Assembly (NCBI GenBank): GCA_964501035.1
Contig: CAZCRK010000001.1
Location: 62,001 to 100,514, forward strand
DNA: 38,514 bases
Reading direction: 5' to 3'
Numbering within the stretch: position 1 is the stretch's first letter; every line of letters begins with the position of its first letter. Below, in pieces: positions 1,148 to 15,894 of this stretch. The notes below the pieces were generated by a model. That model saw nothing but the letters and a program-made list of their open reading frames with translations. It was not told where the DNA came from and ran no database searches. Position numbers and translations under genes: made by a program.

Positions 1148-1183
1148 AAATTAATACAAATTCATAAATTTTTAATATTTTCC

Positions 1184-1212
1184 TTGTACAATTCACTAAG
1201 TCTTAATAAGTT
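1184..1212 (+). promoter_or_regulatory. Putative sigma70 promoter of the cys leader/operon
   Basis: TTGTAC (1184-1189), 17-nt spacer, TAAGTT (1207-1212); predicted start site about 1219-1221. Confidence 0.5.
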
Positions 1213-1220
1213 TTTACCCC

Positions 1221-1328
1221 GTGATTAATGAATATTCAAATCTAAAGGCAAATGATTTAACTGTGACAACTGACCATAGCTGTTGTTGTTGCTGTTCTAT
1301 GTTCGGAGGAGGAGACTTGCCCAGATAA
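1221..1328 (+). CDS. Poly-cysteine leader peptide, 35 aa (MINEYSNLKANDLTVTTDHSCCCCCSMFGGGDLPR)
   Basis: GTG 1221 to TAA 1326-1328; five consecutive Cys codons at 1281-1295; lies between the promoter and a terminator upstream of cysteine synthase; alternative in-frame GTG at 1263. Confidence 0.8.
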   Translation: MINEYSNLKANDLTVTTDHSCCCCCSMFGGGDLPR

Positions 1329-1350
1329 AGGATTTGAATATTGATTATAT

Positions 1351-1388
1351 AACCCCTTTTGTCGGTAAGGCAAGAGGGGTTTTTTTTT
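1351..1388 (+). terminator. Intrinsic terminator (attenuator) upstream of cysM
   Basis: AACCCCTTTTGTC-ggtaa-GGCAAGAGGGGTT 13-bp stem running into a T tract, ending 11 nt before the cysM ATG. Confidence 0.9.
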
Positions 1389-1399
1389 AGAAAGAAAAA

Positions 1400-12349: not shown

Positions 12350-13099
12350 TTGGAAGCACTCATCTTAATAATTTCAGCATTTATAACCTCCACCATATCT
12401 GCAATTTTAGGAATGGGTGGAGGTATTATACTTCTTGCAATTATGGCACTATTGCTTCCAGAAGGTTATTTAGCAATTGCGTTACATGGTGTAATCCAAC
12501 TGGTAAGTAATACAACTCGTTCTTTTGCATACCGTGAAAGTATTAACTGGAAACTCGTTCGAGAATTTTTATTCGGTGCATGCTTTGGATTGCTCCTTTC
12601 ATCCATCATTATTTTTGGGTTAATGCAGGTGATGCAGATTACCACAGCATCCGATATAAAAGTTGATTTTTTGAAACCAGCAATTGGAATTTTTGTACTC
12701 TGGTTTTTATATGGGAAAAGACTAACTCCACACCATGGAAAAAAATTTACAAAAGTAGGGCTGATGAGTGGTTTTGCAACCGTTTTTGTTGGAGCAACTG
12801 GACCTTTAATTGCACCCTATTTTTTGGATTATGGTTTGAAGAAAAAAGAAATAATTGCCAACAAAGCAGTCTGTCAAGCTATTAGCCATACAGGTAAAAT
12901 GCCTATTTTTATTTTTCTATTTCATTTGAACTATTTCGAACATTCAAAAGTACTGTTACCTTTATTAGTTGCCGTTATCATTGGTACATATTTTGGGAAA
13001 CATATTCTATCCTTTATACCCGAACATATTTTTAGATTGCTTTTTAAATCTGCACTTACACTGATGGCAATTAAACTTATTATTGATTATTGGGTTTAG
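12350..13099 (+). CDS. TauE/SafE-family (TSUP) sulfur-compound transporter
   Basis: GMGGGIIL and GATGPLIAP repeat motifs, about 8 TM segments, TTG start. Confidence 0.85.
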   Translation: MEALILIISAFITSTISAILGMGGGIILLAIMALLLPEGYLAIALHGVIQLVSNTTRSFAYRESINWKLVREFLFGACFGLLLSSIIIFGLMQVMQITTASDIKVDFLKPAIGIFVLWFLYGKRLTPHHGKKFTKVGLMSGFATVFVGATGPLIAPYFLDYGLKKKEIIANKAVCQAISHTGKMPIFIFLFHLNYFEHSKVLLPLLVAVIIGTYFGKHILSFIPEHIFRLLFKSALTLMAIKLIIDYWV

Positions 13100-13131
13100 G
13101 GTTACCGCAATAGATTACTCTGTTTAATTTT

Positions 13132-14796
13132 TTAGTACGAATCTCCATGAACCGTTGTGACAGCCCGTCCAGATGGGTCATTGAGAAGTTTAAAACTTTC
13201 ATCCCATTCTAAAGCAATTTTAGAACTACAAGCTACGGATGGTTCAGATGGTACGGTTTTGGCGGATGTTTCAGAAGGAAAGTGAGATGCAAAAATACTT
13301 CGATAATAGAATTCTTCTTTGGTATGTGGTGTATGTGTTGGAAATGTATGATGTGCATTTTCAAGTTGAATATCTGTAACATTTTTATTGACATAATCTT
13401 TGAGCGTGTCAATCCAACTATAACCAACTCCATCAGAAAATTGTTCTTTTTGTCGCCATAAAACTGACTTTGGTAAATAGTCTTCAAATGCTTTCCGAAT
13501 TACCCATTTTTCCATTCTTTCACCATGTATGAGTTTATCGTTTGGGTTTATTTTCATAGCAATTTCTATAAATTCCTTATCTAAAAATGGAACTCGCCCT
13601 TCAACACCCCATGCACTTAAAGACTTATTTGCTCTTAAACAATCATAGAGATGTAATTTCTTTAGTTTTCGCACGGTTTCATTGTGAAATTCCTGAGCAT
13701 TTGGAGCTTTATGAAAATATAGATACCCCCCAAAGATCTCATCAGCACCCTCTCCTGATAAAACCATTTTCACTCCCATTGATTTTATAACTCTTGCCAT
13801 TAAGTACATGGGTGTTGATGCTCGTACTGTTGTTACATCATAGGTTTCTAAATGGTATATCACATCTCTAATTGCATCCAACCCTTCTTGAATTGTAAAT
13901 GTTATTTCATGATGTACAGTACCAATATGGTCAGCTACAATTTTAGCATATTTCAAATCGGGAGAACCTGTTAAACCCACAGAAAAAGAGTGTAATTGAG
14001 GCCACCATGCCCCTTGCTTATCGCCAGACTCAACGCGCATATCTGAATATTTCTTAGCAATTGCTGAAATGATTGAAGAATCCAACCCCCCAGACAACAA
14101 CACACCATATGGAACATCTGTCATAAGTTGTCTATGAACTGCATTTTCCAAACCCGTTTTTAGCAAATCAATATGTGTAGAGTTTTTTTGAACATTATTG
14201 TAATTATCCCAATCAGTTGAATACCACTTTACAAGTTTTCCATCATTACTTGATAAATAATGTCCTGGAGGGAATATTTCAATTTTAGAACAGTATCCTT
14301 CGAGAGCCTTTAGTTCGGATGCAATATAAAAAGTCCCATGTTTATCCCATCCCATATAGAGTGGGGTGATTCCCATGTGATCTCGAACAATTAAATATTC
14401 ATGTGTTTTGCTATTGTAAAGAGCAAATGAAAAAATACCATTTAACTCATTTATAAAATCAATTCCTTTTGATTTGTATAATGCGAGAATTACTTCACAG
14501 TCAGATTCCGTTTTGAAATTATATTTTCCTTCAAATTGTTTTCTAAGTTCGAAATGATTATAAATTTCACCATTAACGGCTAATATTGTTTTATTTTCAT
14601 CACAGTAAAGTGGTTGTTTACCCGATGAGGGATCAACAATCGCAAGACGTTCGTGAGATAAAATTGCTTTTTCACCTGTGTAAATACCACTCCAATCTGG
14701 CCCCCGATGTCGCAACTTTCCTGACATTTCTAAAACTTGTGATCTCAATATTTCTGATTTTTCTTTTAAATCAAACGCACATACAATTCCACACAT
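13132..14796 (-). CDS. asnB: Asparagine synthetase B (glutamine-hydrolysing)
   Basis: Start reassigned to ATG 14796 so that Cys is N-terminal (MCGIV), RBS AAAGGA upstream; HRGPD, LLSGGLDSS, SGEGADE. Confidence 0.97.
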   Translation of the reverse strand: MCGIVCAFDLKEKSEILRSQVLEMSGKLRHRGPDWSGIYTGEKAILSHERLAIVDPSSGKQPLYCDENKTILAVNGEIYNHFELRKQFEGKYNFKTESDCEVILALYKSKGIDFINELNGIFSFALYNSKTHEYLIVRDHMGITPLYMGWDKHGTFYIASELKALEGYCSKIEIFPPGHYLSSNDGKLVKWYSTDWDNYNNVQKNSTHIDLLKTGLENAVHRQLMTDVPYGVLLSGGLDSSIISAIAKKYSDMRVESGDKQGAWWPQLHSFSVGLTGSPDLKYAKIVADHIGTVHHEITFTIQEGLDAIRDVIYHLETYDVTTVRASTPMYLMARVIKSMGVKMVLSGEGADEIFGGYLYFHKAPNAQEFHNETVRKLKKLHLYDCLRANKSLSAWGVEGRVPFLDKEFIEIAMKINPNDKLIHGERMEKWVIRKAFEDYLPKSVLWRQKEQFSDGVGYSWIDTLKDYVNKNVTDIQLENAHHTFPTHTPHTKEEFYYRSIFASHFPSETSAKTVPSEPSVACSSKIALEWDESFKLLNDPSGRAVTTVHGDSY

Positions 14797-14821
14797 GTGT
14801 ATTCCTTTCATATTTTATGTT

Positions 14822-14859
14822 AAAAAAAAGCCCCTTAGAAAATTTTCTAAGGGGCTTTT
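14822..14859 (-). terminator. Intrinsic terminator (attenuator) upstream of asnB
   Basis: Perfect palindrome AAAAGCCCCTTAGAAAA/TTTTCTAAGGGGCTTTT with an 8-U tail on the minus strand, 25 nt before the asnB start. Confidence 0.9.
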
Positions 14860-14878
14860 AAATCATATAACGTTGAAA

Positions 14879-14950
14879 TTACATGAATCCCCTCTCAATA
14901 TTATTATTGAGTGTGAAAAATAAATTTGTTGTATAATTTCTGTTTGTCAT
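14879..14950 (-). CDS. Asn-rich leader peptide, 23 aa (MTNRNYTTNLFFTLNNNIERGFM)
   Basis: ATG 14950 to TAA 14881-14879; 6 Asn codons including NNN at 14908-14900; stop lies 19 nt before the terminator preceding asnB. Confidence 0.7.
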   Translation of the reverse strand: MTNRNYTTNLFFTLNNNIERGFM

Positions 14951-15009
14951 CTTAAAAACTCTAGGGTTAATTTAAGTCTAAATTTTTATAAACCAAGCCA
15001 TAAAATAAT

Positions 15010-15894
15010 TTACATTTTTATTCCCAGTGTGAGCCCACTCACTATTCCACCAGCACCCAAGTTTCTAACTCCAAAATCAACTTTAAACTGTTCAAAGGAT
15101 AATCCAACTCCCGCACTAAGGCCTGCAAAAAAGTCGCTACCATATTCACCGGTTTGTAGGTTAGATTTGAAATTTGATGAACTCACTCGGAGTTTGAATG
15201 CACGCGACCCAAATTCAATGCTCCCTATAAAATGGGATTCATCGATAAAAGCATATTGTCGTGCATGAATAATTAACATTGCAGGGAGATGTTGAGGTTT
15301 GTATGAAACTGATACTTGCGTAAATTTTGGTAAATTCTCAACTGAACCCAGATATGGATCAATTACAATTCCCAAATTTTCAAGCGAAATGCTTACTCCC
15401 ATTTTTTGATTAAAACTGTGCGAATGTATTCGAAATGATGATGATATTATTTGAGAAGAATAATTAGATATATTACTTTTTATGTATGAAACATTTCCCC
15501 CCACCCAGACAAAATTCTGAAAAATAGAATTATATTCGACATTTAACAAAATATCTTGAGCTTTAAAGTAATTATCTTCATTATCCATGTCTTCAACAAA
15601 CGTTCCATAATCCATTGATATTGCCGAAATTGAAAATATAGAATTTCTTTTTATTTGTTTAAATGCGAAGGATTGAAACGCGATGTCCTGAGGGTATTGT
15701 AAATAACTAAAGCTATATGTATTATTGACCCCATCAACGATGTTAGCCCCTCTCAAATTACATGGCAATTCAGTAAAAGAACTGGCTGAAATTGAAAGAG
15801 CTCGAGCATTATGTGGAAGCTCCAAAATAGAGTAACTTGATTGAGATATAACTATTGAGATAAAAACAAAGTGAATGAATTGATTAATCTTCAT
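15010..15894 (-). CDS. PorV/PorQ-like outer-membrane beta-barrel protein
   Basis: Signal peptide then YSILELPHNARALS N-terminal motif, MDYGTF, alternating beta strands. Confidence 0.65.
   Translation of the reverse strand: MKINQFIHFVFISIVISQSSYSILELPHNARALSISASSFTELPCNLRGANIVDGVNNTYSFSYLQYPQDIAFQSFAFKQIKRNSIFSISAISMDYGTFVEDMDNEDNYFKAQDILLNVEYNSIFQNFVWVGGNVSYIKSNISNYSSQIISSSFRIHSHSFNQKMGVSISLENLGIVIDPYLGSVENLPKFTQVSVSYKPQHLPAMLIIHARQYAFIDESHFIGSIEFGSRAFKLRVSSSNFKSNLQTGEYGSDFFAGLSAGVGLSFEQFKVDFGVRNLGAGGIVSGLTLGIKM

Follow-up and report, generated by a model that had tools for sequence, protein, structure and literature searches.

How is the asparagine synthetase gene of an uncultured marine bacterium controlled, when no regulator gene lies within its immediate block of DNA? 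The question is raised by a stretch of 38,514 nucleotides (nt), called the window in what follows (GenBank assembly GCA_964501035.1, contig CAZCRK010000001.1, positions 62,001 to 100,514 of the forward strand). On its minus strand, a 213-nt spacer separates the stop codon of a PorQ-like gene (15012-15010) from asnB, and it contains a small open reading frame (sORF) with a run of asparagine codons, followed by a strong intrinsic terminator. A first-pass annotation of the window had read this arrangement as an asparagine-sensing leader-peptide attenuator, and after the analysis described here this is still the explanation best supported by the anatomy of the leader, by shuffled sequences and by other leaders of the same style. 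So, the asnB leader is quite probably a ribosome-mediated attenuator that would sense charged tRNA-Asn and control asnB, the response to asparagine being what we infer from its sequence. Five points argue for it: its exact anatomy, its rarity by chance, the presence of an asparaginyl-tRNA synthetase (AsnRS), the fact that the leader travels with asnB, and two leaders built in the same style elsewhere in the genome.

Anatomy of the asnB leader

The elements of the leader are listed in Table 1, together with those of the surroundings and of the leaders compared with it. On re-reading, all the coordinates of the sORF, of hairpin P1, of the GAGGGG strand, of its CCCCTT partner and of the terminator, as well as the distance to asnB, were found as first annotated. 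The sORF is enriched in codons for the amino acid made by the product of the gene downstream, a recognised mark of attenuators. The partner of GAGGGG, CCCCTT at 14854-14849, lies in the 5′ arm of the terminator, which has a folding energy of -22.3 kcal/mol (ViennaRNA). This terminator was listed by a custom scanner for hairpins followed by T-runs and missed by a standard promoter and terminator scan, presumably since some of the T-run is taken up into the stem.

The distance between the terminator and the gene bears directly on the expression of asnB. A promoter placed beyond the hairpin, which the first-pass annotation had raised as an objection to its own reading, was not listed between terminator and asnB by a consensus scan, and the distance from the T-run to the gene, 25 nt, is too short to hold one. 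Read-through of the terminator is therefore the only evident route to asnB expression.

Table 1. Positions of the features of the asnB leader, of its surroundings and of the leaders compared with it
Feature	Position	Strand	Description
Leader peptide sORF	14879-14950	minus	MTNRNYTTNLFFTLNNNIERGFM, then stop; 23 codons, 6 Asn; ATG at 14950, TAA at 14881-14879
Control codons	14900-14908	minus	AAT AAT AAT, codons 15-17; direct reading
Hairpin P1	14894-14911	minus	CUCAAUA-AUAA-UAUUGAG; overlies the Asn run
Antiterminator 5′ strand	14889-14894	minus	GAGGGG; inside the 3′ end of the leader sORF
Hairpin P2	14863-14886	minus	UCAUGUAAU-UUCAAC-GUUAUAUGA; 9 bp; extends across the stop codon of the leader; the antiterminator helix closes it
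Intrinsic terminator	14822-14859	minus	AAAAGCCCCTTAGAAAATTTTCTAAGGGGCTTTTTTTT; perfect 15-bp stem, 4-nt loop, U8; 25 nt before the asnB ATG
Possible leader promoter (putative)	14967-14996	minus	TTG (14996-14994), 19 nt, TAAATTAA (14974-14967)
asnB	13132-14796	minus	Glutamine-hydrolysing asparagine synthetase, 554 residues; ATG at 14796
Strain-variable block	13100-15008	minus	Holds asnB and the entire leader; flanked by the convergent TauE-family gene (stop 13097-13099) and by the PorQ-like gene
Trp leader	G000:C19:3290-3364		MEGLNSITVSGFWWYFQKGLEQQP (WW); before trpE-G-D-C-F-B
Cys leader	1263-1328 (or from GTG at 1221)	plus	VTTDHSCCCCCSMFGGGDLPR (CCCCC); terminator 1351-1388
cysM/cysK-like gene	1400-2299	plus	285 bits, below equivalog cut-offs
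Flavobacterial leader peptides			MFLNYSNNNNNNYYPRR (four times); MTVYLINNNNNNNYYATP; MFQNVFNNNLNNNNGNP (different terminator)

Occurrence of the leader frame by chance

The genome has 33.8% G+C and the leader 25%, while asparagine makes up 6.2% and the codon AAT alone 4.9% of all codons. The frequency of a comparable frame was therefore measured on 5000 shuffles, with dinucleotides preserved, of the 150 nt that lead from the upstream stop codon to the terminator, the latter being kept fixed; the frames counted had an ATG start and 10-40 codons and ended within 45 nt of the terminator. A suitably placed frame of any kind arose in 24.8% of the shuffles, and one with any triple run in 2.8%. Frames with at least five asparagine codons were found in 0.58% (p = 0.0058) and frames with three consecutive ones (NNN) in 0.12% (p = 0.0012).

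The whole genome gave a similar picture, in that NNN occurs in 3 of the 954 ATG-initiated sORFs counted in its 543 intergenic regions with a length of 90 nt or more, and blastn found no repeat of the leader sequence elsewhere in it. The other two NNN frames (G000:C96:138-212 and G000:C31:6249-6356) probably arise by chance: in the genome list of hairpins, no terminator-like site precedes either of the genes behind them. One of them, MAISFGYYVNNNNVQKNVFFLIKK, lies upstream of a gene whose product starts with MVYIPSHLQIEPVNRYCDARCPMCT, and the other begins with MKIPLNNNENYT.

Alternative helices and proposed mechanism

The alternative structures of the leader were studied by folding it with the control codons masked by a ribosome footprint and the transcript truncated ahead of the 3′ arm of the terminator. 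With the ribosomal A site at codon 15, GAGGGG pairs with CCCCUU and closes P2, the two helices together giving -15.3 kcal/mol, a value matched by 0.35% of 2000 shuffles (38 free nucleotides). The first nucleotide of codon 15 is 14 nt from the antiterminator strand, a distance equal to that of the second Trp codon in the trp leader of the same genome, considered below. In both leaders the antiterminator strand lies at most about 15 nt upstream of the leader stop codon, so a terminating ribosome, with the footprint size that we assume, would cover it.

The first-pass annotation had compared this layout to the 1:2, 2:3 and 3:4 helices of classical attenuators. The 1:2 pairing does not hold as annotated, since P1 shares with the antiterminator strand one base only, G14894; it therefore barely competes with the antiterminator and is not a true 1:2 element. 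On the folding models, the working logic is better described as one of ribosome position, with GAGGGG either occluded by a ribosome at the stop codon or freed by a stall at codon 15. When the leader is folded as an untranslated RNA, GGGG pairs with CCCU just upstream of the sORF at full length and with the terminator arm if the RNA is truncated; in these models, an untranslated leader may read through instead of terminating.

Concerning the prerequisites, a direct AsnRS is needed to sense free asparagine, and a search for one had been proposed in the first-pass annotation. It was found: asnS matches TIGR00457 with 504 bits, over the cut-off. Searches of the genome, which is an estimated 95.7% complete, gave no match for GatB and none for asnA. 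Charged tRNA-Asn should therefore report free asparagine, and asnB is the only recognisable route to this amino acid. The asnS gene itself has no leader, being abutted by another gene.

The proposed mechanism would run as follows. Transcription would begin within the ~60 nt past the PorQ-like gene, and a ribosome would translate the 23-codon leader. With plentiful Asn-tRNA, the ribosome would reach the UAA at 14881-14879 and cover GAGGGG and the 5′ half of P2; the terminator (14859-14822) would then form, ending the transcript 25 nt before asnB. With scarce Asn-tRNA, the ribosome would stall at the first codons of AAU AAU AAU and leave GAGGGG free to pair with CCCCUU in the 5′ arm of the terminator, P2 bringing the two strands together. 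The antiterminator so formed would block the terminator, and RNA polymerase would read into asnB.

The same two helices could also belong to a real terminator/antiterminator switch driven by an RNA-binding protein, a small RNA or a ligand-binding RNA, with the asparagine codons being incidental. The leader is indeed highly structured (z = -5.7 versus shuffles for the folding of its whole length), and protein-driven antitermination is known for nitrogen genes. However, this explanation leaves unaccounted for the match between the codon run and the gene product, which recurs in the Trp and Cys leaders of the genome; moreover, there is no regulator gene in the block, and the whole window gave zero Rfam matches at gathering thresholds, T-box included. 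We consider such a switch very unlikely. When permissive thresholds were applied around the leader, the best Rfam hits were His_leader (RF00514), with 31 bits where 49 are needed for gathering, and the trpB motif (RF04312), with 32.7 where 59 are needed. Membership in a leader family (His_leader, Phe_leader RF01859, trpB motif, PyrR or T-box) was rejected, all scores being below gathering.

Leaders of the same build before Trp and Cys genes

A ribosome-mediated attenuator at asnB would be more credible in an organism using this kind of control at other genes. The 1.87 Mb of the genome were scanned for strong hairpins followed by a T-run, which gave 411 sites, 36 of them at most 80 nt upstream of a gene start on the same strand, and 21 of these with a spacer of at least 70 nt, or no called gene, upstream. 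Three of the 21 sites share a common build, with stems of 10-12 bp, tails of T8-9 and spacers of 144-224 nt. They precede trpE, a cysM/cysK-like gene and asnB, and in all three an sORF stops 22-25 nt before the stem, as placed by the scanner. In each case the repeated residue of the leader peptide (Trp, Cys, Asn) is the product of the gene behind it.

In the trp leader region (G000:C19:3290-3430; L277 ~190-330), a U9 terminator ends 11 nt before trpE, and masked folding gives a 12-bp antiterminator, GGGGUUGGAACA:UGUUCUAACCCU, that takes the 5′ arm of the terminator. The terminator of the Cys leader has a 13-bp stem and U9 and also ends 11 nt before its gene, of the cysM/cysK family; masked folding resolved no antiterminator in this case, and the region (window 1221-1399) has no Rfam family match. 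A frame with a Cys run (CCCCCC, CCCC or CCCIC), a GGGxLP tail and a CCCC...GGGG terminator is found before the orthologous gene in all five family relatives. A WW frame precedes trpE in three of these five; the fourth has spaced Trp codons, as read by eye, and the remaining one has none. The conservation of both leaders means that this lineage does use leader-peptide attenuation as a standard device.

The asnB leader resembles the Trp and Cys leaders in its general plan. In all three, the sORF has 21-24 codons and a G-run towards its 3′ end, and it stops 22-25 nt short of a CCCC...GGGG hairpin followed by U8-9; from the terminator to the gene there are 11-25 nt. It differs from them in that its control run is shorter relative to the commonness of the residue, and in that it is known only with a strain-variable block, whereas the other two are conserved in family relatives.

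The leader and asnB as one strain-variable block

The block in question, of ~1.9 kb, covers asnB and the complete leader; sORF, terminator and gene are present or absent together. It is absent from near-identical strains represented in X5 and X6, two public seawater or brine runs of other studies: their contigs differ from the window at 4 of 292 nt in the PorQ-like gene (15009-15300) and diverge from it exactly at 15009. Their letters past this point are those of window 13082-13098, the end of the TauE-family gene (IDYWV), after which come a stop codon and 12 nt. In run X7, on the other hand, a contig bridges 15009 identically (14943-15149).

In the sister species G001 the order of genes is priA, peptidase and PorQ-like, and the convergent TauE gene comes 19 nt on (L182 1479-1497), with no asnB, no spacer and no hairpin at the locus. 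Its genome, 100% complete, gave no match for Asn_synthase or for asnA, and to judge from this gene content the species may need external asparagine. With a G+C of 35.1% (mean 34.2%) and a third-position G+C (GC3) of 22.5% (mean 22.0%), asnB is like its host in composition; gain of the block here and loss elsewhere are therefore indistinguishable.

These data bear on the simplest alternative, namely that the hairpin is an ordinary terminator or insulator ending the read-through from the PorQ-like operon, with an asparagine frame arisen by chance and asnB dependent on leaky read-through or on a promoter that escaped recognition. Since the terminator belongs to the asnB block, it is not there just to end the upstream operon, a possibility against which the first-pass annotation had warned. 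It stands 150 nt beyond the upstream stop codon and only 25 nt before asnB, and it is absent where asnB is absent; those 25 nt are too short for a promoter. As to a chance origin of the frame, some sORF occupies this position in a quarter of the shuffles, AAT is the commonest codon for asparagine (4.9% of codons, in a leader of 25% G+C), the Shine-Dalgarno sequence is weak and the sORF is conserved in no relative, all of which would suit an insulator; but a frame with NNN has p ~0.001, and the genome has two more leaders of this build, each of them conserved and in keeping with the gene downstream. On balance, we regard the insulator as unlikely.

If the asnB leader is an attenuator, the block could be a prototrophy cassette complete in itself, supplying promoter, sensor, terminator and enzyme and regulating its own expression. 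It would be acquired or lost whole, at a site between convergent genes, by streamlined marine bacteria with sister lineages that lack a recognisable asparagine synthase. Leader-peptide attenuators would then be portable modules needing only ribosomes and AsnRS, and those specific for Asn would have at least two independent origins, one here and another in flavobacteria. We put this forward tentatively, with somewhat more doubt than confidence.

Evidence against attenuation and search for the leader in relatives

Several observations weigh against attenuation at asnB, and they concern the control run, the alternative helices, the expression signals and the relatives. The NNN run is a short control run for a common residue, and scanning many genomes will yield some chance NNN frames upstream of asnB. 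The antiterminator helix has 6 bp only, including one G-U, and at least six of its core bases pair in 18% of the shuffles. When the leader is taken at full length, the terminator wins in every masked fold, as it also does in the trp leader; the choice between terminator and antiterminator must therefore be kinetic, as in classical cases. Finally, when the A site is moved on to codon 16 or 17, GAGGGG becomes progressively covered, so that the first asparagine of the run would be the effective stall codon.

Concerning the expression signals, a scan for the sigma-70 consensus lists no promoter in the asnB leader, and the Shine-Dalgarno match of the sORF is weak (AGAG, 8 nt upstream). In this genome, a Shine-Dalgarno-like core is seen at ~32% of crude gene starts, compared to a background of 8%. 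The putative leader promoter of Table 1 is similar in spacing and shape to the TTG ... TAAGTTT(G/T) elements located before the Cys leaders of the window and its relatives. There (window 1180-1215 and L286-L290), a conserved CTTG(T/C)AC is followed after ~20 nt by a TAAGTTT(G/T)-like element, an arrangement that resembles what we take to be the Bacteroidota-type -33/-7 promoter, with the consensus TTTG / TAnnTTTG. A run labelled metatranscriptomic, although probably made of DNA, contributed a single contig, which covers 15088-15300 only.

The search for the leader in relatives covered ~250 asnB upstream regions in total, in sets some of which share genomes. The gene is patchy in the lineage, with matches at E ≤1e-50 in 15 of 60 relatives and no asnB match in the only other sampled species of the same genus, and the best family orthologues of the protein are only ~60% identical. 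Relatives of the same family and order gave 13 upstream regions, in which no Asn leader was present. Two NNN frames met among the relatives were rejected as leaders: that of L003 is in the hairpin of a repeat element, copies of which lack the run in two sister loci, and that of L008 falls where, on our own reading, a divergent gene begins on the other strand in the sister locus L006. L003, L005 and L007, all of genus g7, have in common, ~60-160 nt upstream of asnB, the palindromic element CTGTCAT...GAAGTGAA.AATCTCAAT ... ATTGAGATGCTTC ... CAGCATGACAG, which looks like a repeat or miniature mobile element and not like a leader.

At the level of the phylum, an asnB-type match was found in 33 of 300 sampled genomes, and the 26 upstream regions obtained contain no NNN frame. 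Overall, the AsnB proteins nearest to that of the window, with 70-78% identity, come from flavobacteria or from marine metagenomes. The closest homologues in genomes and metagenomes provided 147 upstream regions with a length of 200 nt or more, and none has anything like the leader of the window: five have an NNN frame, two a terminator-like hairpin and none both. Nothing similar was found either in 49 sampled Flavobacteriaceae regions, apart from one unrelated leader with six consecutive asparagines (N6); they hold one more NNN frame, with a TTG start (L228). A blastn search with the leader against all the loci fetched gave chance matches only (E ≥0.05). So, the sORF, the control codons and the alternative helices are not conserved in any relative examined. 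The conserved Asn-rich sORF that the first-pass annotation had expected in related genomes was, thus, not found. This result is uninformative rather than refuting, because no relative has the asnB block and the conservation test is therefore without power.

The lack of relatives of the peptide among the loci examined also bears on a last alternative, in which the sORF would code for a small functional peptide, or would act on the translation of asnB, by coupling or reinitiation, instead of on its transcription. The sORF is intact and on the same strand as asnB, and reinitiation at leader genes is the subject of a paper (PMC4833913). Nevertheless, 82 nt, with a strong terminator among them, separate its stop codon from the asnB ATG, and asnB has an AAAGGAA of its own. 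An explanation of this kind seems to us so improbable as to deserve hardly any weight.

asnB and its neighbours

The identity of the gene behind the leader is clear. AsnB matches NF006949 with 907.8 bits (cut-off 499), as corresponds to a true asparagine synthetase B, it has the Pfam domains Asn_synthase and GATase_7, and it is the only strong match for an asparagine synthase in the genome. The start of the gene was set at 14796 (MCGIV...), because the catalytic cysteine must be residue 2. The earlier ATG at 14811 was rejected, as with it Cys2 would be buried; the homologues of AsnB all begin with MCG, and AAAGGAA lies 7 nt upstream of the chosen ATG.

The upstream neighbour (window 15010-15894, minus strand) codes for a protein of 294 residues with no Pfam match and a weak resemblance to PorQ/PorV of type IX secretion (92 bits, cut-off 220); a Peptidase_MA_2 gene and priA share its orientation. 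The assembly searched has no 16S gene. The PorQ-like gene and the promoter-like motifs of the TAnnTTT type suggest an organism of the Fibrobacterota-Chlorobiota-Bacteroidota (FCB) group.

Significance and comparison with known systems

Full-text literature searches found no Asn leader peptide and no attenuator of an asparagine synthetase gene, in agreement with the first-pass annotation, which knew of no characterised case; in the passages considered from PMC9299463, asnB appears only as a target of GcvB. What the window would add is the asparagine case of leader-peptide attenuation, in an uncultured marine bacterium: the mechanism is a textbook one, and the amino acid is one not found described in the literature searched. 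With Trp, Cys and Asn leaders of one build, a single organism would offer three parallel switches to compare. A switch that travels with its gene as a strain-variable block bears, in addition, on the change between auxotrophy and prototrophy in streamlined ocean bacteria. For annotation, the case argues for including Asn and Cys leaders in attenuator searches.

The nearest counterparts are found in flavobacteria. AsnB of this type occurs in 146 of 201 sampled Flavobacteriaceae genomes, and the N6 leader mentioned above belongs to one of them, G502. Among the relatives of G502, 6 of 11 usable asnB upstream regions have Asn-run frames of 17-18 codons together with terminators. Their runs are N6-N7 or N3+N4, with three peptides and two types of terminator (L266-L271, L275), and the AsnB proteins behind them are 71-72% identical to that of the window. 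In the G502 leader, the bases before the ATG (AGCAC...) can pair with those after the stop codon (...CTTGTGC), enclosing the sORF, and the terminator is ~130 nt before asnB, with tandem palindromic repeats in between.

The flavobacterial leaders, like that of the window, consist of an sORF with Asn codons and then an intrinsic terminator upstream of asnB. They differ from it in their longer runs (six or seven consecutive asparagines, or N3+N4), and blastn detects no sequence similarity between both kinds. The resemblance looks like one of common design and not of common descent. As far as sequences can tell, the Asn-leader class appears to be real and recurrent, and the leader of the window is a likely instance of it, unrelated to the others and with a shorter run.

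Other devices are known to couple asparagine supply to the expression of asparagine genes, such as the T-box leaders, which can also work through a terminator and an antiterminator, and the AsnC-type regulators. The asnB leader differs from them, as it has no T-box match at the thresholds used and no regulator gene stands next to asnB.

The closest comparison is with the classical enterobacterial attenuators trpL, hisL, pheL, leuL, thrL and ilvL/ivbL. Leader-peptide attenuation is the textbook way of reading the supply of an amino acid through translation, with examples for Trp, His, Phe, Leu, Thr and Ile/Val. The asnB leader would differ from these in sensing asparagine and in having a single target gene, asnB, and it has no sequence relation to them. 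Its hairpin 1 does not sequester the antiterminator, and the latter is a 6-bp helix that closes a hairpin, unlike the one long 2:3 helix of the classical cases. It shares with them a short reading frame rich in codons for the product, a terminator just before the gene, and an alternative helix that uses the 5′ arm of the terminator and would be set by the position of the ribosome.

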